Shown in pieces: positions 118 through 30,335 of a stretch of 32,000 nucleotides of DNA (position 1 is the first letter of the stretch; each line of letters starts with the position of its first letter). The position numbers and the translations under genes were made by a program. This DNA is from Candidatus Saccharimonadota bacterium (GTDB taxonomy: Archaea > Nanobdellota > Nanobdellia > Pacearchaeales > GW2011-AR1), in assembly GCA_026002795.1 (NCBI GenBank), contig BPGA01000001.1, positions 450,001-482,000 of the forward strand. Reading direction: 5' to 3'. The notes beneath the pieces are model-generated. The model worked only from the letters and a program-made list of their open reading frames with translations. It did not search any database and had not been told where the DNA came from.

Positions 118-681
118 TTAACTTATAATTTTTATGTCTATTATTATTTTTCCTTGATTATCAGTTCCTGTATTTTTCACTAAAATTCTATAAGGCACTG
201 AGGCAGGAGTCATTTCTCTAACCTGTTCCAAGCCATTAAAAGTAACATTATATTGCGAAGAAAAATTTCTTGCTAAAATAACCTCGTAATTTTTTCCTTT
301 TTGTAATGTTTGAACCATTATATTTCCAACAGAAATCTCTTCTCCAATTTCGCTGTACTTGTTTTTACTATCTACCTTAAATGATAATACATCATTTAAT
401 GAATCTACAATAAAGCTTCCTTTTCTTATTGAAATTGTGAAAACTCTTTGATTTCCTACAGTTCCAATACTATTAACTAAACTATCAAAATCCTCGAGAA
501 TTCCTATAGATTGTTCAATAATTGATCTATCTTGTGATTCTTCAATTTTTGGTTTTACAAACGCAAGCACAATTCCTATTAGAGTTAGAGCTATCAATGT
601 ATAAACCATTGTCTCAACCCAAACCTGTGCTTTTTTATTCTTTTTAATCCCAAGACCTTTATACTTCTTTTTTATTTTCAT
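118..681 (-). CDS. type IV pilin-like protein (class III signal peptide)
   Basis: The N-terminus has a Lys-rich leader, then KKA|QVWVETMVYTLIALTLIGIVLAFV (hydrophobic helix). The rest is beta-rich and soluble. It is last in a same-strand run of pilin-like genes. Confidence 0.6.
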   Translation of the reverse strand: MKIKKKYKGLGIKKNKKAQVWVETMVYTLIALTLIGIVLAFVKPKIEESQDRSIIEQSIGILEDFDSLVNSIGTVGNQRVFTISIRKGSFIVDSLNDVLSFKVDSKNKYSEIGEEISVGNIMVQTLQKGKNYEVILARNFSSQYNVTFNGLEQVREMTPASVPYRILVKNTGTDNQGKIIIDIKIIS

Positions 682-748
682 TTTTTTAAATGCATTTTCC
701 TCTTTTTTTTCTATTTGCTAGTTTTTATATGAACTTAAGACATTTTAC

Positions 749-1261
749 TCAGCTTACGCATGGAGGTATCTGCTCTAATGAATCTGAAAAGTCACACTGG
801 TTTTCACCTATAATAGGAGCTAAACTTATTGAATCTGGATTATTTAGGTTAAAAAGAGTTAGATTAACAATATAAGTCTTACCAGCATTTTTTGCAGGCA
901 AAGAAACTTGTTGATTTCTATCAGGATAAGATACAACACCTTGAATTGTTGAACTTTTATTTAAAATTTTAAAACTTTTAGAATTTCCTTCAGAGAGGAT
1001 ACTAACTAAAACAGCATCTAATTGAATATCCTTAATTTCAATTGATACACGGGCCTCATTTGATGCAAAATTGTAACAAGTGAATTCCTGATTTATTTTT
1101 ACTTTATCAAAAGTTTCAAAACACGAGCTTGATTTAGTTTTGCTTTGTACTAGGTTATTAACAACTAGCCAAACCATAGCAGCAATAAAAACAGTTAAAG
1201 CTACAATTAAAACAGCCCCAACAACAGGAGAAATACCTCTTTTATCATCTCTTTTTATCAT
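749..1261 (-). CDS. archaeal type IV pilin-like protein
   Basis: N-terminus MIKRDDKRG|ISPVVGAVLIVALTVFIAAMVWLV is the classic archaeal prepilin (RGxSPV) class III signal. Four Cys. TTTATAAA box at -29..-22 from the ATG. Confidence 0.75.
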   Translation of the reverse strand: MIKRDDKRGISPVVGAVLIVALTVFIAAMVWLVVNNLVQSKTKSSSCFETFDKVKINQEFTCYNFASNEARVSIEIKDIQLDAVLVSILSEGNSKSFKILNKSSTIQGVVSYPDRNQQVSLPAKNAGKTYIVNLTLFNLNNPDSISLAPIIGENQCDFSDSLEQIPPCVS

Positions 1262-1282
1262 TTTTATAAATAGTTATTTATA

Positions 1283-1290
1283 TTTATAAA
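1283..1290 (-). promoter_or_regulatory. TATA box (TTTATAAA) for the pilin-like gene; leaderless geometry
   Basis: TTTATAAA lies exactly -29..-22 from the ATG at 1261. Archaeal TATA boxes centre near -26 from the transcription start. Confidence 0.45.
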
Positions 1291-1459
1291 GTTTAACAAA
1301 AAGCACCTTAGTTATTAATTATCATGAAAAAGATATAAGATTACAATATCCATTCTAAGAAATTTTGCGACTTTCTAAATTAATTTTTTTAGACCATAGA
1401 AAAATTAGTATTTATATTGTCATTAAAATTATTTATCTTTAAAAGGCATTAAATATAAC

Positions 1460-1942
1460 CTAAACTATATCTATTTCTTGAGAATAGGTTTCATCACAAG
1501 AATGTGTTTTTTCTTGGCCCGCAGACTCACCTAAAAGAATTGGCGTTATTGAAATTGATGTTGCTTCTGAAAATTTAGAACTTAAATCCTCAGAAGAAAA
1601 ACTTCCTCCTGGCATTAAGCCATTTATCGGCCAGTTTGTTGAAATTTCTTTTATTTCTAAGGTTTCAAAACTTCCTGGCTTTGTTATTTTTACATTTAAA
1701 CTATAAATTGGAACATCTCCTGTATTGACTACAGACAAAATTCCAGATGAACTTTCATAATTTGATAGAAAAGTTACATCCTGACAAATTAATTCTACAT
1801 TTGTTCCTCCAAATTTTGTTATTGCTTCTTTACTAAGCCCACGGAACCATAAAAAAATTATTAGTGCTATAACCAAGACCATTGCTACAAGAAGAACAGT
1901 TGCAATTACTGGAGATAAACCTTTTTTGTTTTTTTTCAACAT
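1460..1942 (-). CDS. archaeal type IV pilin-like protein
   Basis: N-terminus MLKKNKKG|LSPVIATVLLVAMVLVIALIIFLWF (class III signal). Cys pair: ELICQDV near the helix and THSCDET near the C-terminus. Confidence 0.75.
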   Translation of the reverse strand: MLKKNKKGLSPVIATVLLVAMVLVIALIIFLWFRGLSKEAITKFGGTNVELICQDVTFLSNYESSSGILSVVNTGDVPIYSLNVKITKPGSFETLEIKEISTNWPINGLMPGGSFSSEDLSSKFSEATSISITPILLGESAGQEKTHSCDETYSQEIDIV

Positions 1943-2046
1943 CTTAATTAAAATTTAAACGTATTTATTAATTTTCTCTTTTAATTATTTATACATAAAG
2001 ATTGTATTTAGCATTGGTTTAATAAATTAAAATTTAATGAACTAAA

Positions 2047-2568
2047 CTAACTTACTTGTGTTACATCAGACTTTATAGCAACGTTAGTACAACTTACTAA
2101 CTTTATTCTTTTATTTTCTTCTTCAAATCTTACAGGAACAATTCTAATTTTTTTTATTTCACCTAATGAAGACGGAATATCAAATACAGCCTTCCACTCT
2201 TTTCCTGTTTTAAGGTCATTGTAACCTAGAGAAACGACAACAGCATTTCCAACATTCTCGCCATAACTTTTATTTAAATACCCTGCTAAATTAGTAGAAG
2301 GGTTTTCGTCTCCAGCTTTATTAGATCCATAAATAAAATAACCAGCAACATCAAATCTTCCGTTATTTGAGGCGTTTATTGAGAGTTTTCTGTTTGTTAT
2401 GTTAAAAACCGCATCTTTAATAAAAACAGATAATCCCTCAACACACTCTGTTTTTTCTCTAGGAACATATGTTTTAAGCCATTGATAAGAGATTATAGCA
2501 GCAACCAAAACAAAAACAACTAACATTACATAACTTACAAGAACACTTACTCCTTTTTTTGTTCTCAT
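2047..2568 (-). CDS. type IV pilin-like protein (class III signal peptide)
   Basis: N-terminus MRTKKG|VSVLVSYVMLVVFVLVAAIISY. Cys pair: KTECVEG and LVSCTNV. Confidence 0.65.
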   Translation of the reverse strand: MRTKKGVSVLVSYVMLVVFVLVAAIISYQWLKTYVPREKTECVEGLSVFIKDAVFNITNRKLSINASNNGRFDVAGYFIYGSNKAGDENPSTNLAGYLNKSYGENVGNAVVVSLGYNDLKTGKEWKAVFDIPSSLGEIKKIRIVPVRFEEENKRIKLVSCTNVAIKSDVTQVS

Positions 2569-2630
2569 TTTATTTTAAAGGTTTTTATATTTTTAAATTG
2601 TACGCATTATAAAAATTATTTTAAATGTCC

Positions 2631-3158
2631 TTATCCAATTTCGATATACTCTTCATTATTTTTAGTTTGAATTAAAACAAAGTAAAAATTTTGTCCTGGC
2701 ATTATTTCAAAAGAGAAAGGCTTTTGGTCTATTGTTAAGTTTAAATTTTGTAATTGAGGATCTATACTTATCGAAAATCTTCCAGGAGAAGTTGTATTTA
2801 TTTCATTTCCAGATTCTATTTCTACTAATTTAGCTTCTTTTTGGTATCCTGATAGTGTGATATTGTTTGAATCTCCAAAAATGAAATACAAATCAGTTCT
2901 ATTAAAGCTTTTTTTAATATAATTATTTGTAAAATTTTCCATCAAAAGAATTATTTCGTTAGATTGAAATCCAGAGCTTGTTGCTGCATCAATGGTTTTT
3001 TTACTTTCTATTCTTATTTCTTCAGCAAGATCATAAAAATCAGTGTTTTTTGTTTTAAGAGAAGTATTTCCAGCAATAGAAATACCTATTATCAATGAAG
3101 AAATAACAACAGCAGCAATAAGGTAAAATTGCCCTTTTTTTTCTTCAATCTTAAACAT
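2631..3158 (-). CDS. type IV pilin-like protein (class III signal peptide)
   Basis: N-terminus MFKIEEKKG|QFYLIAAVVISSLIIGISIAG. It is first in the same-strand pilin-like run. Confidence 0.6.
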   Translation of the reverse strand: MFKIEEKKGQFYLIAAVVISSLIIGISIAGNTSLKTKNTDFYDLAEEIRIESKKTIDAATSSGFQSNEIILLMENFTNNYIKKSFNRTDLYFIFGDSNNITLSGYQKEAKLVEIESGNEINTTSPGRFSISIDPQLQNLNLTIDQKPFSFEIMPGQNFYFVLIQTKNNEEYIEIG

Positions 3159-4816: not shown

Positions 4817-5683
4817 TTATTTCTTCTTTCCTTGATAAAATTTCAATTTCTTTATTTTATTTCCCGACAATTCTAGCCAAATGTTCACATAAGGACCAAA
4901 TCCAGCATTAATCGCTATTGTTTTTCCAACTTTGCATTTTGTAAAGTGTTCGTGTATATGTCCACCAATGCAAACTAGCGGATGATATTTATCAATCATT
5001 TCACGGGCAATTAATGAACCATAATGATAACCATATCTTGGTGAATCTTTATTTGTAATTTCATCAATTGTTGTATTGAATGGCACATTATGGGATAGGA
5101 AAATAACGGGCTTCGATGCTTTCTCAAAAAGAGAAGTAATTTTTTTTGAATCTCTTTCATATTCTCTTTTTCTTTTTGCCAATTCTTTTGGCTTAAGTCT
5201 TTCCAAATCTTCTTTGTATTGTGGATATTCAGGACCTGAAGAAATACCATGTCCTATAATTTGATAATCTCCAATATCCACTATTTTATGATGAACATCA
5301 ACAATATTTGAAAGACCCTTTATAAGCGTTTTATAATGATCTTGTTTCAGAAAATCCCAATCTGGGTCATTAATTTTCGTCCAATCCCAATTTCCTGGAA
5401 CAATATAAACAGGAACGCCAAAAGAATTAAGTTGTTCTAATATTTCTCTTCCATCAGAAAGAGATTTTTTAATCATTTTTCTTGCCTCTCTTTTTCCAAC
5501 AATATCATACCATCTTGTTTTAGAATTAGAATTTTCTAATCTCTTTCTTAATGCTAGAATCACATATTTTCTTGGAGCATCTGAACAAAAATCTCCTGGC
5601 GCAATAATTGCATCAAAACCATCAAAATAAATATTTGGTCTATTTCCATGCAAATCTCCTACTACTAAAACTTTCATTGCCAT
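4817..5683 (-). CDS. calcineurin-like metallophosphoesterase
   Basis: Ordered metallophosphoesterase motifs: VVGDLHGN, APGDF, GNWD, GHGI, GGHIHEH. Confidence 0.85.
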   Translation of the reverse strand: MAMKVLVVGDLHGNRPNIYFDGFDAIIAPGDFCSDAPRKYVILALRKRLENSNSKTRWYDIVGKREARKMIKKSLSDGREILEQLNSFGVPVYIVPGNWDWTKINDPDWDFLKQDHYKTLIKGLSNIVDVHHKIVDIGDYQIIGHGISSGPEYPQYKEDLERLKPKELAKRKREYERDSKKITSLFEKASKPVIFLSHNVPFNTTIDEITNKDSPRYGYHYGSLIAREMIDKYHPLVCIGGHIHEHFTKCKVGKTIAINAGFGPYVNIWLELSGNKIKKLKFYQGKKK

Positions 5684-5930: not shown

Positions 5931-6710
5931 TCAAACTTCTTTCCAATCAACCAGTTTTCCAGAGCTGTCTCTTAAAAACAAACTATCACTGTCCTTTACT
6001 AAAATATCATTTTCTGGCCAAAATAATACTTCTTTTGAGTTTGTATTGTTTCCTTTAAAAATATAAAAATAGTTTTTTCCATTTACAACAAATTTAGGAA
6101 AAATAAATCTTTTTCGTCCTTCGTTTTTTATTGTCCAATTCTCAAGATTACAAGAAAAATCACAAAAATTGTAAAAACCCATTGTATCTTCTTCAGAATT
6201 TATAGAGACAATCTTTATACAATAAGCACATACATCATCTGATCTTTCACATAAATTTATGTTTTTTTCTAAACAAGACAGCCAAGACTTTTTAAAATTG
6301 TTGTACTCTTTTGATCTTCCAGAAGGAAAATAATAATTTGAAAATCCATTTTCTATAGATTTCAAATTTATATTTTCTTCATTTAAAAATAAATAAGCCA
6401 ATGTTCTTCCATATTTATCTTTTTTTTCTTTTTCAAATTTTAAAGAAACTGTTTTGTTTAAAACTTCTTTTTCTAGAAATTTTTTTGCTTCTTCATAATA
6501 AGGTTCATTTTTTTCAGGAGCATTAATTCCTAAAAGCCTAATTGTTTTGTTGTTTCCAGATACAGTATCTCCATCAATAACTCTTTCAACATAAAAATAC
6601 TCTTTTTCATCTAAAAATTTTATTAATAAACCGTCAAGAGTTTTATAATTTAAGGAAAATAAAAGAAAAATCGAAAAAATTAAAATAAGAGTTTCTTTTC
6701 TTTTATTCAT
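5931..6710 (-). CDS. secreted/anchored thermonuclease (SNase fold) fused to a lamin-tail-like domain
   Basis: N-terminal hydrophobic signal or anchor (LILIFSIFLLFSL). SNase motifs: VIDGDT, IRLLGINAPE, YGRTLAY. The C-terminal ~100 aa follow the lamin-tail pattern (LENWTIKNEGRKRFIFP...LFLRDSSGKLVD). Confidence 0.8.
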   Translation of the reverse strand: MNKRKETLILIFSIFLLFSLNYKTLDGLLIKFLDEKEYFYVERVIDGDTVSGNNKTIRLLGINAPEKNEPYYEEAKKFLEKEVLNKTVSLKFEKEKKDKYGRTLAYLFLNEENINLKSIENGFSNYYFPSGRSKEYNNFKKSWLSCLEKNINLCERSDDVCAYCIKIVSINSEEDTMGFYNFCDFSCNLENWTIKNEGRKRFIFPKFVVNGKNYFYIFKGNNTNSKEVLFWPENDILVKDSDSLFLRDSSGKLVDWKEV

Positions 6711-6752: not shown

Positions 6753-8207
6753 TTAAAAGTTATCTTTTTTTATAAAGAATAAAACTATTGAGATAAGTAT
6801 TATTATTCCAACAATTGAAAACCAAAATAACAAAGTAGGTAATAATGATTTTTCTTCAATAGTTTGTGGTTCTTCTCTCACTGACAATTTTGGAAAGAAC
6901 TGGCTAAAGTATTTTTGTTCATCAAGGGGGTTTGGTTTTATTAGTCTAACTCCAGAAGCCCCACCTGTTTTTCTTTCTCTCTTTTCTTCTTTTTTCTCTA
7001 CATTAACAACCTTCAACTGATACTTCTGCTCAGAAAAATCTTTTCCATCACTAACTCTTAAAATTACATCAAAAACAACATCCTCTGAAACTTCTGGAGC
7101 TATTCCTGAAATTAAACCAGTAGAACTTATTGAAAGCCAAGAAGGAGCTTCTAAAGAGTAGGTTAAAGAATCTCCATCTTCATCTTCTGCAATAACTTGA
7201 TAACTATACTGAGAATTTTCATTAACTTCTGTCACAGGCTGAGATTTTATCACAGGTGGTTTGTTTACATTAACAACCTTCAACTGATACTTCTGCTCAG
7301 AAAAATCTTTTCCATCACTAACTCTTAAAATTACATCAAAAACAACATCCTCTGAAACTTCTGGAGCTATTCCTGAAATTAAACCAGTAGAACTTATTGA
7401 AAGCCAAGAAGGAGCTTCTAAAGAGTAGGTTAAAGAATCTCCATCTTCATCTTCTGCAATAACTTGATAACTATACTGAGAATTTTCATTAACTTCTGTC
7501 ACAGGCTGAGATTTTATTACAGGTGGTTTGTTTTTTGGTATAGGATTTACTGTTATTGTTACAATTGCAATGTTGCTATCTAATTTTCCATCATTAGCCT
7601 TAAAACTAAAGCTATCTGTTCCAAAAAAACTTGGATTTGGTGTGTAAGTAATTTCTCCTGTAGAAGAATTAAAATTGGAAATTGAGCCATTTGATGGATT
7701 GCTTACAATTATAAAAGTTAAAGGATCATTTTCAGGATCAGTTGCATTTAAATTGAAAGTTACTGGCTTATTCTCTTCTGTTGTTATGTTTATGTTGTAT
7801 GCAATTGGGGGATTGTTTTTTTGTTCTTGTTTTACTTTTAATTTTAAAACATGATTGTCAGAACTTGGAAAATTGTCTGATGCTTGCAAAATAACTTCAA
7901 AGTCACCACTTTTTTTATAAATTTCAGGTCCTATAGAATAGCTTTTTGAAAAACTATTTGTACTAACAACTTTATTTTTTTCAAAAGAATGAATCTCATT
8001 TAATTCAGAATTGTAAAGTTTAATATTTATTGTCATTGGAGGAGTCATACTAAAAAAATCCGAATTAAAAATCAAATCTTCTCCAAAAGGAATTTCAATT
8101 TCATCTTTCCCGTTTTGCCATTCTCCATAAACAACTACAGCGTTTATACTAGAAACTAAAAAAATTACAATACCTAAAAGCAAAAATAACTGAAAATTTT
8201 TTTTCAT
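6753..8207 (-). CDS. cadherin-like/Ig-like repeat surface adhesin with C-terminal membrane anchor
   Basis: Signal peptide (FQLFLLLGIVIFLVSSINA). One domain of the bacterial cadherin-like type (PPIAYN..TEENKPVTFNL.ATDPENDPLTF...GTDSFSFKANDG...VTITVNP). Two identical 89-aa Ig-like repeats. C-terminal TM helix (LLFWFSIVGIIILISIVLFFI). Confidence 0.8.
   Translation of the reverse strand: MKKNFQLFLLLGIVIFLVSSINAVVVYGEWQNGKDEIEIPFGEDLIFNSDFFSMTPPMTINIKLYNSELNEIHSFEKNKVVSTNSFSKSYSIGPEIYKKSGDFEVILQASDNFPSSDNHVLKLKVKQEQKNNPPIAYNINITTEENKPVTFNLNATDPENDPLTFIIVSNPSNGSISNFNSSTGEITYTPNPSFFGTDSFSFKANDGKLDSNIAIVTITVNPIPKNKPPVIKSQPVTEVNENSQYSYQVIAEDEDGDSLTYSLEAPSWLSISSTGLISGIAPEVSEDVVFDVILRVSDGKDFSEQKYQLKVVNVNKPPVIKSQPVTEVNENSQYSYQVIAEDEDGDSLTYSLEAPSWLSISSTGLISGIAPEVSEDVVFDVILRVSDGKDFSEQKYQLKVVNVEKKEEKRERKTGGASGVRLIKPNPLDEQKYFSQFFPKLSVREEPQTIEEKSLLPTLLFWFSIVGIIILISIVLFFIKKDNF
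6999..7533. repeat. tandem duplication, 2 x 267 bp, one mismatch
   Basis: 6999-7265 repeats at 7266-7533 with a single difference (c7251 vs t7518). It is in frame (89 codons) inside the adhesin gene. Confidence 0.95.
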
Positions 8208-18743: not shown

Positions 18744-19325
18744 ATGTTTGAAATTGATTTAGATGAAAAATCAAAAGAAAAAATAAAAGAAATATTTGGT
18801 ACATTAAACAAAAAACAAGAAAATTTTATTTCTAAACTTTATGAACTCGCTGTAAAAGATCACAAAACAAAAGTTTACAATTCTAAATTTTTTAATGATG
18901 TTCTTTCAATTGAGTTGGAAAAAGCTAGAAGAAAAAAAGGAAAACTTTGTATATTTGTTATTGATATAGATTATTTTAAAAAAATTAATGATTCTTACGG
19001 ACACTTAATTGGAGATAAAATCCTTTACAAATTTGCTAGAATCCTTGAAAAAAATTTTAGAAAAACAGATGTTATATCAAGATTTGGGGGGGAAGAGTTT
19101 TTTATTTTATTACCTAATACTTCTAAAAGAAACGCCAATAAAATAATAAAAAGAGTTCAAAATTCCATAAAAAATGATTCTTTTTTAAAAAAATATAAAA
19201 TTACATTTTCTGGTGGATTGACTGAGTATAGAGACAAAGATACAAAAACTTCTTTTAAAAAAAGAGCTGACTCTGCTTTGTATAAAGCAAAAAAATCAGG
19301 AAGAGATCGTGTTGTTGTTCTTTAA
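18744..19325 (+). CDS. stand-alone GGDEF-domain protein (putative diguanylate cyclase)
   Basis: FVIDIDYFKKINDSYGHLIGDKIL, RFGGEEFFILLP, an RKTD (RxxD) motif five residues before GGEEF, SGGL, and ADSALYKAKKSGRDRV. Confidence 0.85.
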   Translation: MFEIDLDEKSKEKIKEIFGTLNKKQENFISKLYELAVKDHKTKVYNSKFFNDVLSIELEKARRKKGKLCIFVIDIDYFKKINDSYGHLIGDKILYKFARILEKNFRKTDVISRFGGEEFFILLPNTSKRNANKIIKRVQNSIKNDSFLKKYKITFSGGLTEYRDKDTKTSFKKRADSALYKAKKSGRDRVVVL

Positions 19326-20737: not shown

Positions 20738-21451
20738 ATGTCAGAAAAAACAGAAAAGCAAAATAAAAACGAAATTCTTTTCCTTGGTATAGATGATGCA
20801 GGAAGAGGTCCTGTTATAGGTCCAATGGTTCTCGCTGGTTGTCTTGTAGATGAAAAAACAAAAGAAGAATTTAGAAAAATAGGTGTTAAAGATAGCAAAC
20901 AACTAACTCAAAAAAGAAGAGAATTTTTAGAGATAAAAATTAAGGAAAAAGCAATATCTTATCATATTGTTTTTTTGTCTCCAGAAGAAATTGATGATCA
21001 CTTAAATAAAAAAGCCAACATTAACAATCTTGAAGCAATAGCTTCTGCAGAAATAATCAACAAAATAAATTCTCTTAAAGATGTTAAAGGAAAGAGAATT
21101 AAAGTAATTTTAGATTGCCCTTCAAACTCAATTAATAAATGGAAAGATTTTCTTAAAACAAAAATTGAAGATCTATCAAACCTTGAAATAATTTGTGAGC
21201 ATAAAGCAGATAGAAACCATGTTGTTGTTTCAGCCGCTTCAATTTTAGCTAAAACAGCTAGAGAAAGAGAAATGGAAAAAATAAGGAAAAATTTTGGCGA
21301 AGATATCGGTTCTGGTTATAGTTCAGATCCAATAACGAGAAAGTTTCTTAATAAAAATATTAAAAAATTCAGTAATACTGGCTTGTTTAGGAAATCATGG
21401 AAAACCTGGAAAAAAGCAAATCACGACTCTTATCAAAAAAAACTTTTTTAA
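20738..21451 (+). CDS. rnhB: ribonuclease HII
   Basis: GIDDAGRGPVIGPMVLAG N-terminal motif, ADRNHVVVSAASILAK, and SGYSSDP. Confidence 0.9.
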   Translation: MSEKTEKQNKNEILFLGIDDAGRGPVIGPMVLAGCLVDEKTKEEFRKIGVKDSKQLTQKRREFLEIKIKEKAISYHIVFLSPEEIDDHLNKKANINNLEAIASAEIINKINSLKDVKGKRIKVILDCPSNSINKWKDFLKTKIEDLSNLEIICEHKADRNHVVVSAASILAKTAREREMEKIRKNFGEDIGSGYSSDPITRKFLNKNIKKFSNTGLFRKSWKTWKKANHDSYQKKLF

Positions 21452-21515
21452 TTAAGTCATTGTTAGAACCCGTTAGTGAGTTAATCTTTAAAAACTTATT
21501 TAATTTTTTTCTTTT

Positions 21516-24377
21516 ATGTATATAAAAAAACTAATAGTACACGGGTTTAAGAGTTTTCCAAAAAAAACAGAAATTCCTTTTTCTCCAGGAATAAATGTAA
21601 TTTTAGGTCCAAATGGAAGTGGAAAAAGTAACATTTCAGATGCTATATGTTTTGTGTTGGGAAGGTTAAGTATTAAGTCATTAAGAGCAGCAAAAGCAGA
21701 AAATTTAATCTTCTTTGGAACTAAAAACATTCCGCCGAGTAAAGAAGCTTCAGTTGAAATAATACTTGACAATTCAAAAAAAATTTTTTCTATAGACAAA
21801 GAAGAGATTAGTATTAAAAGAATTGTGAGAAAAAATGGACAAAGTGTATATAAAATAAATAATGAAACAAAAACAAGACAAGAAGTTTTAAATCTTTTAT
21901 CTCAAGCAGGAATAGATCCTAATGGGTTTAATATAATTCTTCAAGGAGAAATACAAAATTTTGTTATGATGCATCCAGAAGAAAGAAGAAAGATAATAGA
22001 AGAAGTTGCAGGCATATCTGTTTATGAATCTAAAAAAGAAAAGTCATTAAATGAATTAGCAAAAACAGAAGAAAAGCTTAAAGAAGTAAACTCAATACTA
22101 AAAGAAAGAACGCTTTATTTAAACAACTTAGAAAAAGAAAGGCAGCAGGCTCTAAAATATAAAAATTTAGAAGAAAAAATTAAAATTCTTAAAGGAAGCA
22201 TAATAAACCAAAATTTAATAAATAAAAAAAAAGAGCTAAAAAAAATTGAATTTGAGATTAATTCTAAATTTAATGAAAAAGAAAAAAAGAAAAAAGAACT
22301 TTTTGATTTAGAAGAGAAAAAAACAAATTTTTCAAGAAAAATTGAAGAGATTAATGAAAAAATTCAATCAGAAAGCGGAACTGAACAAGAAAAAATAAAT
22401 CAACAAATTGCTAATTTAAGAGCAGAAATCGCAGTTCTATCAGTAAAACTAGAAAACATAACCAACAAAATTATTAACATAAAAACAGAGAAAAAAGAAA
22501 TTACAGAAAGAATAAACAACTTAGAACAGCAAATCAATTCGCTTAAAAAAGAACCCTTATCAAAAGAAAAAAATAAAATAGACATCGAAAAAAAGAAAAA
22601 AGAGTTGGAGAAACTTGAAGAAAAATTGAAAGAAATAAACAGACAAAAAAATAAAATTGAATTCTTAAAAGGAAAGTTACTAGAAAAAGAAAAAATTCTT
22701 AAAGATTTAGAAAAAGAAGGAAATTCCTTGCTTAGTGAAATAGAAAAAATATCTTTGCAAATAAAAAATGAAAAGTTAGATGAAAATATCTTGGAAATTA
22801 TAAAAAAAGAAATTTTTGATTTTGACAAAAAAATAAAAAATCTTGAGAACGAAATTTTTAACAACGAAAAAAAACTATTAAAAAATAAAATAAGATTAGA
22901 AGATCAGGAAAAAATTGTTAAAGAAATCGAGAATTATGATGTTTGTCCCGTATGTAAAACAATAATAACAAAAGAACATATAAATAAGATAAGAGAAGAA
23001 ATAGATCCGATAAAGAAAGAAATTGAAAAAGAAATTTTTTATATAGAAAATTCTCTTGAAAATTCAAAAAAAGAAAAAGAAACCCTTGTAAAAAACAAAG
23101 AAGAAAAAGAAAAAGAGAAAAGAGAGATTGAAAAAGAAATAGAAAAAATAAAACAACTAAAAAATAAAAAAAAGCTTCTTGAGAATATAGAAGAGAAAAT
23201 AAAAAATTTGAAAAGTGAAATAGAATCTATTGATAAAGAAATAAAATTACTTGAAGAAGAAAACAAAAAATTTTCTGGTATTGAAGAGAAAATATCTTTT
23301 TTAAGAATTGAAATACAAGAATTAAATCTTTTTTCTAAAGAAAATTTAGACGCTGAAATTCTATTTAAAGAAAGAGAGCTAGAAAGATTGAAAATTGATC
23401 TTAAAAAAACAATTAGAGAAGAGGAAGAATCCTCTCAGGAAATTTTAGAGATAGAAAAGATGCTTTCTTTGAAAAATAAAGAACTTCTTGAAAAAAAGAA
23501 AGAAGAAGAAATAATAATAAAGAAACACAAAAAACTTATAGAAGAAAAAGAAGATCTAATAAAAAAAATTAAAGACATAGAGTTTAATTCTTTTTCTTTA
23601 AAAAATTTAATTCAATCAATAGAGTCATCAGAAAACGAATTGAAAATAGAAAAAGCAAGAATAAACGCAGAGATAGAAAACTTAGAAAACGAAATTGTTG
23701 AATATTCTAACTTAAAATTCATAAATCTTCCAAAAGAAAAATTGTTTGAAAAACTTGAAAAAACAAAAGAAGAAATTTCGAAGATAGGCAGTGTTAATTT
23801 AAGAGCTATAGATGTTTATGATTCTATAAAAAAAGAATATGAATCAATAAAAGAAAAAGCAGACACAATAATTAAAGAAAAAGAAAATATCTTAAAAGTT
23901 ATAAAAGAAATAGACTCCAAAAAGAAAAAAGTTTTTTTAAAAACTTTAAAGGAAATAAATGAAATTTTTTCTAGAAATTTTTCTCAGTTAAGTGATAAAG
24001 GTCAAGTATTTCTTGAATTAGAAAACAAAAAAGATCCTTTTGAGGAGAATTCAGGGATAATTGTTATTATTAAAACAGGTCATGGAAAATATTTAGATGT
24101 TAAATCTCTTTCTGGAGGAGAGCAAACTCTTGTTGCTTTATCTTTAATTTTTGCTATACAAGAGTATAAACCATACTACTTCTATCTTTTAGATGAAATA
24201 GATGCAGCACTAGACAAAAGAAATTCCGAGAGGTTAGCTACACTTCTAAATAAATATATGCAAAAAGGACAGTATATTGTAATAACCCATAATGATGAAG
24301 TTATAAATAAAGCGACAAACCTTTATGGTGTGAGTATGCATGAAGGAACTTCAAAAATAATAAGCTTAAAGGTTTAA
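21516..24377 (+). CDS. SMC-family ATPase with central CxxC (zinc-hook-like) motif instead of a hinge
   Basis: SMC-type head: HGFKSF, GPNGSGKSNISDAICFVLG, ILQGEI, EERRKIIEEVAGISVY. C-terminal head: LSGGEQTLVALSLIFAIQ, YLLDEIDAALD, VITHND, LYGVSM. About 600 aa of K/E-rich heptad sequence lies between them. CPVC is at residues 477-480 of 953. Confidence 0.9.
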   Translation: MYIKKLIVHGFKSFPKKTEIPFSPGINVILGPNGSGKSNISDAICFVLGRLSIKSLRAAKAENLIFFGTKNIPPSKEASVEIILDNSKKIFSIDKEEISIKRIVRKNGQSVYKINNETKTRQEVLNLLSQAGIDPNGFNIILQGEIQNFVMMHPEERRKIIEEVAGISVYESKKEKSLNELAKTEEKLKEVNSILKERTLYLNNLEKERQQALKYKNLEEKIKILKGSIINQNLINKKKELKKIEFEINSKFNEKEKKKKELFDLEEKKTNFSRKIEEINEKIQSESGTEQEKINQQIANLRAEIAVLSVKLENITNKIINIKTEKKEITERINNLEQQINSLKKEPLSKEKNKIDIEKKKKELEKLEEKLKEINRQKNKIEFLKGKLLEKEKILKDLEKEGNSLLSEIEKISLQIKNEKLDENILEIIKKEIFDFDKKIKNLENEIFNNEKKLLKNKIRLEDQEKIVKEIENYDVCPVCKTIITKEHINKIREEIDPIKKEIEKEIFYIENSLENSKKEKETLVKNKEEKEKEKREIEKEIEKIKQLKNKKKLLENIEEKIKNLKSEIESIDKEIKLLEEENKKFSGIEEKISFLRIEIQELNLFSKENLDAEILFKERELERLKIDLKKTIREEEESSQEILEIEKMLSLKNKELLEKKKEEEIIIKKHKKLIEEKEDLIKKIKDIEFNSFSLKNLIQSIESSENELKIEKARINAEIENLENEIVEYSNLKFINLPKEKLFEKLEKTKEEISKIGSVNLRAIDVYDSIKKEYESIKEKADTIIKEKENILKVIKEIDSKKKKVFLKTLKEINEIFSRNFSQLSDKGQVFLELENKKDPFEENSGIIVIIKTGHGKYLDVKSLSGGEQTLVALSLIFAIQEYKPYYFYLLDEIDAALDKRNSERLATLLNKYMQKGQYIVITHNDEVINKATNLYGVSMHEGTSKIISLKV

Positions 24378-24420: not shown

Positions 24421-24774
24421 TCATAAAAGCTCTAATTGTTTTCTTTTTATGTAATTTTTTATATCAGAAGAAGAAAACCCACCCCTAAAAACCTCTTTTC
24501 TTCTTTCATCATTGTTCTCATCATTAGTTATTGAATAACCCTCAACTCTATAGTAAAACTCGCCACTACTTTTTCCAGTATAAACATCCACTAAAAATAC
24601 TAAATTATTGTTAGTTTGAGGTATTATATAACTTAATAATTTAAGATTTATCTCTTCTTTTACTAATTGTTTTAGTCCATCTAATTCTGAAATCAATTCT
24701 TCAAGTTTTCCTCTTAAATTACTTTCTTGAATATTTTTAAGATGAATATCTCTTACTTCAAATTTCATAATCAA
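24421..24774 (-). CDS. hypothetical protein
   Basis: 117-aa ORF convergent with the SMC-like gene. No recognisable motif. Confidence 0.45.
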   Translation of the reverse strand: MIMKFEVRDIHLKNIQESNLRGKLEELISELDGLKQLVKEEINLKLLSYIIPQTNNNLVFLVDVYTGKSSGEFYYRVEGYSITNDENNDERRKEVFRGGFSSSDIKNYIKRKQLELL

Positions 24775-29762: not shown

Positions 29763-30335
29763 CTAAGAAGCAGACCGCATTTTAAATTTAGACTCTAAGT
29801 TTCTTATCTCTCTTATTTTACCTAGCTTTTCGTATAAAGAAACAAGTTTTTTCTTTATTTCCTCTCTTTCATTTTGCGAGGTAGAAATTTCAAGCAGTTT
29901 TTCGTAAACCTCAGCTGCTTTAGCTCTTTTTTTCTCTTTTTCGTATTTCTCAGCCTGTTTTTTATAAAAATCTAAAATTTGGGTTTTGATTCTTTTTCTT
30001 TCTAGAGTATTTGCTTCTAAAAGAGCCTTTTTTGTTGCCTCGTCTGCTTTACTGAAATTATCGCTGTAGATATAAAATTCAGCTTCTTTTAGATAAAAAT
30101 TTATTTTATCAGCAAAAGTTAAAGAAATCTGAGCTAAAGCATTATAACTCTCTGCTGCTTTTGAAAACATTTTTACCTTTTCATATAACTCAGCAATTTT
30201 TAGAAGAACAAATCTTTTCATATCCATGGTTAATGGTTCCTTTAGAAGTCTGTTAAGCCAATCTATTTGTATAAAAGGGCCTTTTCCTTGTAATGTTTTT
30301 TCAATCTCGCTTTTACTCATTCCTACTTTTAACAT
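29763..30335 (-). CDS. helical-repeat (TPR-like) hypothetical protein
   Basis: All-helical and K/E-rich, with repeated A..Y..LA/Y.KL segments. No catalytic motif. Confidence 0.5.
   Translation of the reverse strand: MLKVGMSKSEIEKTLQGKGPFIQIDWLNRLLKEPLTMDMKRFVLLKIAELYEKVKMFSKAAESYNALAQISLTFADKINFYLKEAEFYIYSDNFSKADEATKKALLEANTLERKRIKTQILDFYKKQAEKYEKEKKRAKAAEVYEKLLEISTSQNEREEIKKKLVSLYEKLGKIREIRNLESKFKMRSAS

Follow-up and report, generated by a model that had tools for sequence, protein, structure and literature searches.

We analyzed a 32,000-nucleotide stretch of archaeal DNA (the window; positions 450,001 to 482,000 of contig BPGA01000001.1), which harbors an smc-like gene coding for a protein of 953 amino acids. 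The protein unites the ATPase head and the coiled-coil arms of an SMC protein with a short Rad50-type zinc hook signature, located at the midpoint of the chain in place of the hinge of canonical SMC proteins. This hybrid architecture had been proposed earlier from the letters of the DNA alone (the original prediction). It held up under scrutiny and was found to be conserved across the lineage. The protein is probably the SMC orthologue of the Pacearchaeota, dimerizing by means of an intermolecular Zn(Cys)4 hook.

As described before, the gene is a single long open reading frame (ORF) in the ORF list of the window (Table 1). Its product is identical to the database protein P0001 (KatS3mg001_542) of a Candidatus Pacearchaeota archaeon, which is encoded on a contig of 535 kb, and the gene itself was deposited under the name 'hypothetical protein'. 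The NCBI taxonomy places the Pacearchaeota within the kingdom Nanobdellati of the DPANN archaea. The window is AT-rich, its G+C content ranging from 22 to 31%.

Head and arms of the SMC type

In a search of the PDB sequences, the closest solved structure was a head-plus-joint construct of Pyrococcus Smc (5xei, E 9e-106), which aligned with residues 2-229 and 703-952 and showed approximately 50% identity in the head, whereas Rad50 heads reached E 1e-14 at best. The Pfam domain SMC_N covered residues 2-946 (E 2e-45). Of the NCBIfam models, TIGR02169 (SMC_prok_A) and TIGR02168 scored 523.7 and 505.1 bits, respectively, in both cases by two stretches flanking the absent center, while the non-SMC models gave 124.7 bits (NF045487, the ASRP family), 50-110 bits (Rad50) and 55 bits (RecN). 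The equivalog cut-offs of the Rad50 models (700-1087) lie far above the values obtained. Furthermore, the sequences GFKSF, GPNGSGKS, SDAICFVLG, ILQGEI, LSGGEQ and LLDEIDAALD and the H-loop residue His925 were all invariant in a family alignment of 21 sequences.

The AlphaFold model of the protein had a mean predicted local distance difference test (pLDDT) score of 73, with confident arms and a poor head, the latter due to the shallow alignment. Its secondary structure disclosed long helices at residues 168-472 and 486-825, which were interrupted at 344-350, 416-422, 586-588, 606-609, 729-739 and 758-762. SMC arms usually contain such interruptions, known as 'joint' and 'elbow'. Thus, of the continuous coiled coil initially assigned to residues 170-790, the long helical arms were recovered, but not their unbroken course, because the model is broken at these six places. 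A Foldseek search with the full model was led by chains of condensin, Pyrococcus Smc, Smc5/6 and cohesin (6yvu_B, 7e-23; 5xei, 2e-20), and Rad50 first appeared at rank 14. The head and the arms are of the SMC type and not of the Rad50 type. The original prediction had come to the same view of the head from motifs, and the PDB and NCBIfam searches, Foldseek and the tree described below all agree with it.

A zinc hook signature instead of the hinge

The hinge counts among the features by which SMC proteins are defined, and roles in DNA binding and as a gate for the entry of DNA have been proposed for it. No match to the Pfam hinge domain (SMC_hinge, PF06470) was obtained in the protein even at E<=1, and the domain was absent from all 120 closest homologs. 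We also built a hinge hidden Markov model (HMM) locally and applied it to 150 relatives, the top of an exhaustive search among 50%-identity representatives. It detected a hinge in 106 of them and in none of the 31 hook-bearing relatives; the remaining 13 had neither element, and no protein had both. A hinge in the central region and heads clustering with Rad50 had been named at the outset as outcomes speaking against a hybrid, and neither was encountered.

Pairwise HMMER comparisons with seven hinge-bearing relatives revealed what became of this segment. On the N-terminal side, residues 3-453/493 of the protein matched residues 4-454/507 of the relatives, and on the C-terminal side residues 476/488-953 matched the relatives from residues 660/689 to the end. 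A hinge segment of approximately 180-205 amino acids in canonical SMCs corresponds to only 20-35 amino acids here, while the arms are kept at almost full length (about 305 amino acids each) and are collinear with those of canonical SMCs. The collinearity on both flanks indicates that the hinge segment was replaced and the arms were retained.

The motif at the midpoint reads D-V-C477-P-V-C480-K-x-x-I-T485-x-E-H488. By direct reading of the DNA, TGT codons were located at 22944-22946 (Cys477) and 22953-22955 (Cys480) in the context ...ENYDVCPVCKTIITKEH..., CPVC occupying 22944-22955 exactly as first reported. CPxC accounts for two of the three cysteines of the protein. In 139 distinct fragments, which were extracted around CPxC and for this reason contain C, P and C by construction, the residues D(-2), K(+4), T(+8) and H(+11) were each kept in 124-134 cases. 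A separately built alignment of 35 fragments showed invariant C, P, C and H, and the hook variant of the family can be written as CP[VLI]CKxKITxEH.

The designation of CPVC as a Rad50-style hook was borne out by profile searches. PF04423 (Rad50_zn_hook) was the top Pfam match for ten out of ten central fragments and matched 33 of the 35 diverse fragments at E<=0.01 (best value 3.6e-8). When the profile of the 35 fragments was compared with all PDB sequences, the Rad50 hook of Pyrococcus furiosus came first (1L8D, 8.4e-4; 6ZFF, 2.1e-3), with CPlCkskiTkeH aligned to CPVCGRELTDEH of the P. furiosus protein. Two archaeal Rad50 models of NCBIfam matched 28 and 26 of the 35 fragments at the models' own centers; in the same scan, arcadin-4 matched 17 fragments, ASRP 12 and the SMC models none. 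A search of the PDB with the single sequence of the hook fragment returned zinc-ribbon noise only, the Rad50 hook being reached by the profile. A model of the 70-amino-acid apex folded as helix-loop-helix with a pLDDT of 94.9, and the top Foldseek match of this hairpin was 1l8d_B (probability 0.96, template modeling score 0.68). As judged from these sequence comparisons, the center of the protein is a Rad50-type hook signature and more than a bare CxxC. In Rad50, the two cysteines of one chain complete a tetrahedral zinc site only by pairing of two chains (structures 1L8D and 6ZFF). The family alignment and the 120 homologs did not disclose any further conserved cysteine in the arms.

Conservation and descent of the hook form

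The 120 closest database clusters, originating from NCBI, JGI, ENA and Logan, were 53-57% identical to the protein and had lengths of 944-963 amino acids. Those bearing a name are listed as 'chromosome segregation SMC family protein' of Pacearchaeota or Nanoarchaeota, and a few of the 120 carry PF04423. Every one of the 120 homologs contains exactly one CPxC, which resides at 0.495-0.505 of the length, a finding that extends the midpoint position noted for the window protein to its relatives; the distance between the cysteines and the signature motif is 384-394 amino acids. Taken together with the near-invariant flanks, this places the hook well outside anything expected by chance. By help of family-specific peptide patterns, a relative was identified in 547 genomes (one genome per GTDB species), and the 80 best of these 547 all gave full-length matches. 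The CPxC gene was present in 83 out of 83 fetched loci and in the window, 80 of the 83 belonging to genomes of distinct GTDB species. Hence, the hook form is a conserved form of SMC across the Pacearchaeota, in at least 80 species-level genomes.

To place the head domain, a neighbor-joining tree was calculated from 394 head-domain columns of 135 sequences, from which ASRP sequences were left out, and 30 bootstraps were run on a subsample of 62 sequences. The hook forms together with four short forms constituted one clade in 30 of 30 bootstraps. This clade lies inside the hinge-bearing archaeal SMCs, and its sister, P0158, possesses a hinge. According to the tree, the hook proteins descend from a hinge-bearing archaeal SMC. 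The four short forms (P0139, P0141, P0142 and P0144; 779-804 amino acids) have shorter arms and contain neither a hinge nor CPxC; where a name is given it is that of Pacearchaeota, and two of these four proteins were met again in several separate assemblies. Further proteins of the SMC clade with shorter arms and without hinge or CPxC are P0216, P0229, P0250 and P0266. The short forms within the hook clade look like secondary losses of the hook accompanied by shortening of the arms. In the simplest history, the hinge of the ancestor would have given way to a hook at the root of the lineage, followed by occasional hook loss with shorter arms; the order of this last step is uncertain since neighbor-joining resolves the interior of the clade poorly.

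Two observations on members of the family are added here. Two of the 31 hook-bearing relatives, P0124 (1479 amino acids) and P0129 (1483 amino acids), are interrupted in the Walker A region, behind residue ~35, by some 525 additional amino acids. This insertion was identified as an intein (Intein_splicing, E 6e-28) that contains a homing endonuclease of the LAGLIDADG type (LAGLIDADG_3, E 2e-23). Many hinge-bearing relatives are 1660-1800 amino acids long and probably contain inteins at the same site. In addition, some members are filed under bacterial labels (Bacillota, Parcubacteria and Patescibacteria; loci L014, L027 and L059, proteins P0068 and P0109). Their identity to the Pacearchaeota protein amounts to about 53-56%, and they probably represent mis-binned contigs.

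Proposed mode of action and alternative explanations

We propose that an ancestral hinge-bearing archaeal SMC exchanged its hinge of some 180-205 amino acids for a Rad50-type hook and retained head and arms. The chain would fold back at residues 473-485 to form an antiparallel coiled coil, at the far end of which the N- and C-terminal halves would meet as one ABC ATPase head. At the apex, two chains would share one Zn2+ between two CPxC pairs, yielding a Cys4 site as in Rad50. This would yield a constitutive homodimer in which ATP drives the engagement and disengagement of the heads. The dimer may act on the chromosome in the manner of Smc-ScpA(B), probably in partnership with a kleisin whose gene lies in another part of the genome. 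The assumption of a hook dimer is strengthened by published exchange experiments. Bacillus subtilis Smc whose hinge had been exchanged for the zinc hook of P. furiosus Rad50, Smc(Zh), supported normal growth and showed arm alignment, yet still depended on arm length (Buermann et al. 2017, PMC5344682), and conversely Rad50 with the MukB hinge instead of its hook functions in yeast (PMC6969161). The narrow length range of 944-963 amino acids fits the tuned arm geometry reported for B. subtilis (PMC5344682). The original prediction had called both the dimerization mode and the partners unclear. For the mode this is now less so, given Smc(Zh) and the hooks of ASRP proteins (PMC9389158).

Several results weigh against this proposal. 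The scores of the protein missed the SMC equivalog cut-offs (523.7 vs. 729.4 for TIGR02169, 505.1 vs. 567.35 for TIGR02168). The Foldseek match of the apex to 1l8d_B was not significant (E 0.64), the fold being very simple. The four short members of the clade lack the hook, which implies that not all proteins of the lineage require a zinc site at the apex. Lastly, partner genes were not encountered. Pfam and NCBIfam searches of all window ORFs did not reveal ScpA, ScpB or Mre11 in the 32 kb, in agreement with the initial remark that no mre11-like or scpA gene is adjacent. ScpA, ScpB and Mre11 were likewise not detected in the flanks recovered from shorter contigs of another assembly (10 kb beyond the right end of the window, ~1.3 kb beyond the left end). 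Within ±10 kb of smc in 84 Pacearchaeota loci (1.28 Mb), local HMM and phmmer searches for ScpA gave low-complexity noise only. By contrast, in L093 (5135..9616), an AT-rich archaeon with 35% G+C, smc (1133 amino acids), scpA (197 amino acids) and scpB (164 amino acids) constitute a tight operon.

The kleisin queries comprised ScpA N-domains taken from PDB alignments, the complete ScpA and ScpB pair of L093 and a profile of 120 ScpA sequences. The archaeal ScpA motif DPW[ND]ID, searched as a regular expression, had no match, and searches of large databases seeded with archaeal ScpA yielded Thermococcales only. A metagenome scan with the hinge-bearing sister P0158 as the query yielded loci in which scpA is not adjacent, and a scan of viral contigs gave one match, on a contig with phage-like genes. 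The 190-amino-acid ORF at 29763..30335 was considered as ScpA and dismissed, as it encodes a TPR-like helical protein whose weak matches lie in a K/E-rich stretch. Near P0158, at a distance of about 2 kb, a NurA-domain nuclease is encoded (L086, 10900..11994, minus strand; contig with 33% G+C). NurA is usually found in the company of HerA, Mre11 and Rad50.

Could the protein be an ordinary Rad50, the Mre11-partnered ATPase of DNA double-strand break repair, whose head merely resembles SMC? The central CPxC with its Rad50 signature, the lack of a hinge and the Rad50-like total length would suit this idea, and a gene for a 288-amino-acid metallophosphoesterase is located at 4817..5683. However, the Rad50 models gave 50-110 bits against cut-offs of 700-1087 while the SMC models gave 505-524, and both the PDB search (9e-106 for Smc heads, 1e-14 for Rad50) and Foldseek were led by SMC. 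Moreover, the arms are collinear with those of hinge-bearing SMCs, among which the head nests in the tree, no Mre11 gene is adjacent, and the phosphoesterase, 16 kb from smc, matched generic families only. A Rad50 identity is thus very improbable and already largely refuted. Membership in the ASRP group (ClsN/coalescin, Sph1/2), which would make the protein a separate chromosome-compartment factor and not an SMC orthologue, also appears improbable, if not quite to the same degree. ASRPs are archaeal, hinge-less and mostly hook-bearing (PMC9389158), NF045487 matched partially with 125 bits, and 12 of the 35 fragments matched ASRP in the hook region. Yet these 124.7 bits arose from three partial stretches, compared with a cut-off of 300, and are well under the SMC scores; the model has 593 positions compared with 953 amino acids. 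Approximately 900 residues are collinear with canonical SMC, the clade has a hinge-bearing sister and lies inside hinge-bearing SMCs, and the hook fragments matched Rad50 models in 28 of 35 cases compared with 12 for ASRP.

It is also conceivable, though unlikely, that the CPxC apex is just a tight turn or a site that does not join chains, so that dimerization would occur elsewhere (arm to arm or head to head) or a stable apex dimer would not exist at all. The four clade relatives of 779-804 amino acids without hook or hinge, which stem from several independent Pacearchaeota assemblies, the SMCs from ocean metagenomes without hinge or CXXC (PMC12153180) and the weak Foldseek match to the Rad50 hook could be read in this way. 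On the other hand, C, P and C are invariant and T and H are common with P. furiosus Rad50, despite identities of only ~20-45% to the surrounding 70 amino acids of the window protein; such invariance amid diverged flanks speaks for a conserved metal site like that of Rad50, in which a tetrahedral site with two cysteines per chain requires two chains (1L8D, 6ZFF). The arms do not offer other conserved cysteines. Finally, one may suspect an assembly or gene-calling artefact, i.e., a truncated or chimeric SMC without hinge, as the source is a metagenome-assembled genome and some members bear wrong taxon labels (Patescibacteria, Bacillota). The same architecture, at 944-963 amino acids only, recurs in 120 clusters from four sources (NCBI, JGI, ENA, Logan) and at 83 independent loci, some of them on contigs of 180-620 kb. 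This replication across independent assemblies has already refuted an artefact, the chance of which is next to nil.

With regard to the proposed hook dimer, a bolder variant can be envisaged. The SMC apex may have been dismantled stepwise, the hook being captured from an archaeal Rad50 lineage and later lost, along with a shortening of the arms, in some sub-lineages (the forms of 779-804 amino acids). If ScpA/ScpB or Rad50-Mre11 were absent from these genomes as well, the hook protein could be a minimal machine, kleisin-independent or dual-purpose, that serves both chromosome folding and DNA-end tethering. We regard this as rather doubtful; if true, it would reveal what an SMC complex can and cannot do without.

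Comparison with known systems

Like prokaryotic Smc (TIGR02169/TIGR02168; Pyrococcus, Bacillus subtilis), the protein possesses all head motifs, the neck/joint region and collinear arms of ~300 amino acids. Unlike it, the protein has no PF06470 hinge but a 14-residue CPxC hook and is some 200 amino acids shorter. It also differs from the Smc of Smc-ScpAB in that scpA and scpB are not adjacent here and that it scores under the equivalog cut-offs. The engineered Smc(Zh) of B. subtilis follows the same overall plan, in which the arms of an SMC protein end in the CPVC hook of Rad50, and its function in the cell demonstrates that such an architecture can work. Whereas that protein is artificial and its hook was transplanted, the Pacearchaeota form is natural, fixed across an archaeal lineage with tightly conserved arm lengths, and bears the family's own hook variant. 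With Rad50/SbcC (PF04423; 1L8D, 6ZFF, 5GOX) it has in common the CPxC at the coiled-coil apex and, with P. furiosus Rad50, the signature C-P-x-C-x-x-x-[IL]-T-x-E-H; in contrast, its head and arms do not exceed 110 bits on Rad50 models, and a Mre11 gene is not found nearby in the 32-kb window.

ASRP/ClsN, other archaeal SMC-related proteins, also carry hooks (PMC9389158). The ASRPs (ClsN/coalescin, Sph1/Sph2; NF045487) and the protein studied here resemble each other in being archaeal and in having an SMC-superfamily head, a coiled coil and a hook, not a hinge. Unlike the ASRPs, which are a separate and more divergent family, the protein is far closer to true SMC (125 bits compared with the ASRP cut-off of 300). 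In ocean metagenomes, a cluster of hinge-less SMCs was described that is bacterial, placed near Actinobacteria and explicitly without CXXC (Sussfeld et al. 2025, PMC12153180). It likewise consists of natural SMC-clade proteins that lost the hinge, but the hook form is archaeal with an invariant CPxC. The short hook-less Pacearchaeota forms (P0139 etc.) resemble this cluster more. In the literature, of which full-text coverage leaves out most subscription journals, we did not find any account of an SMC that naturally bears a zinc hook. What is novel is the natural exchange of hinge for hook fixed across a lineage and not a new kind of machine, a result of interest to SMC specialists.

Features of the gene and its surroundings

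The coordinates of the gene, its parts and its immediate neighbors are compiled in Table 1. An obvious Shine-Dalgarno sequence was not seen ahead of the ATG of smc. As read from the sequence, TTTAAAAA could be a TATA box belonging to a leaderless or short-leader archaeal transcript. Antisense ORFs within smc (21500..21799, 22400..22864 and 23039..23266) are, as judged by inspection, probably by-products of the A-rich codon bias for K and E.

Table 1. Features of the smc-like gene and of its flanking regions (positions in the window)
Feature	Position	Strand	Basis
smc-like gene, 953 amino acids	21516..24377	+	ORF; SMC_N 2-946; TIGR02169 524 bits
N-terminal half of ABC ATPase head, residues 1-167	21516..22016	+	residue-for-residue alignment with Pyrococcus Smc head 5xei
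Walker A GPNGSGKS, residues 31-38	21606-21629	+	invariant in family
Q-loop ILQGEI, residues 141-146	21936-21953	+	invariant in family
N-terminal coiled-coil arm, residues 168-472	22017..22931	+	AlphaFold secondary structure; collinear with canonical SMC N-arm
Rad50-type zinc hook, D475-V-C477-P-V-C480-K-T-I-I-T485-K-E-H488	22938..22979	+	DNA read, fragment conservation, profiles
C-terminal coiled-coil arm, residues 486-825	22971..23990	+	AlphaFold secondary structure; collinear with canonical SMC C-arm
C-terminal half of head, residues 826-953	23991..24374	+	Pyrococcus Smc head alignment; invariant columns
Signature LSGGEQ, residues 865-870	24108-24125	+	invariant in family
Walker B and D-loop FYLLDEIDAALD, residues 889-900	24180-24215	+	invariant in family
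H-loop His925	24288-24290	+	invariant in family
Possible archaeal TATA-like box TTTAAAAA, ~25 nt before smc ATG	21487..21494	+	sequence reading only
rnhB (RNase HII)	20738..21451	+	PF01351, E 1e-48; context, not partner
Convergent 117-amino-acid hypothetical ORF	24421..24774	-	without Pfam or NCBIfam match; context

The neighbors named before, rnhB and a convergent hypothetical gene, were both recovered. Upstream of smc, the window encodes IleRS, a tetrapyrrole-type methylase, D-aminoacyl-tRNA deacylase, a GGDEF protein, a methyltransferase, tRNA-Met, thymidylate kinase, tRNA-Ser and RNase HII. Downstream, the convergent ORF is followed by PCMT, a surface-protein-like ORF, an AP endonuclease 2-family protein (xylose isomerase-like TIM barrel), a DnaG-type primase and EF-1alpha. 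The gene thus resides among housekeeping genes, and their order IleRS ... rnhB-smc-PCMT ... DnaG-EF1A is largely kept in other genomes. In 74 of the 84 loci rnhB lies upstream of smc, and directly 3' of smc differing genes were found in other loci. The 10 kb past the right end of the window contain an RNA polymerase and ribosomal protein operon, the ~1.3 kb past the left end one uncharacterized gene for 428 amino acids.

Some other genes of the window deserve mention. A stand-alone GGDEF (diguanylate cyclase) protein of 193 amino acids is encoded at 18744..19325 on the plus strand (PF00990, E 6e-41), i.e., in a DPANN genome, and a syntenic copy of 197 amino acids exists in another Pacearchaeota genome (L003, 4241..4834). 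Such a position-conserved GGDEF gene in archaea was unexpected; to our knowledge, signaling by cyclic diguanylate is considered essentially bacterial. At 118..3158 on the minus strand there is a run of five small genes (160-187 amino acids), whose order is the same in locus L084. Two of them (749..1261 and 1460..1942) possess N-terminal signals of archaeal type IV pilins/archaellins, and the other three did not match any family; the run is possibly a pilus or adhesion locus. Also on the minus strand, a 484-amino-acid protein with Big_9, He_PIG and cadherin-like Ig repeats (6753..8207) adjoins a 259-amino-acid secreted-type staphylococcal nuclease with a lamin-tail domain (5931..6710). Judging by these domains, the pair may act at the cell surface or in the scavenging of DNA, which would suit a DPANN cell that depends on a host.

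Implications

The findings are relevant for annotation, since hook SMCs fall under the SMC equivalog cut-offs and the window gene is named 'hypothetical protein'. As a compact natural SMC, the protein lends itself to structural and single-molecule work, and the short relatives without hook allow a comparative test of what the apex is needed for. The protein is also a clear case of a module exchanged between two branches of one superfamily, SMC and Rad50. A whole archaeal lineage with a hook-bearing SMC is nature's version of the Smc(Zh) chimera and lends support to the notion that the mechanical work is done by arms and heads and not by a particular dimerization domain.

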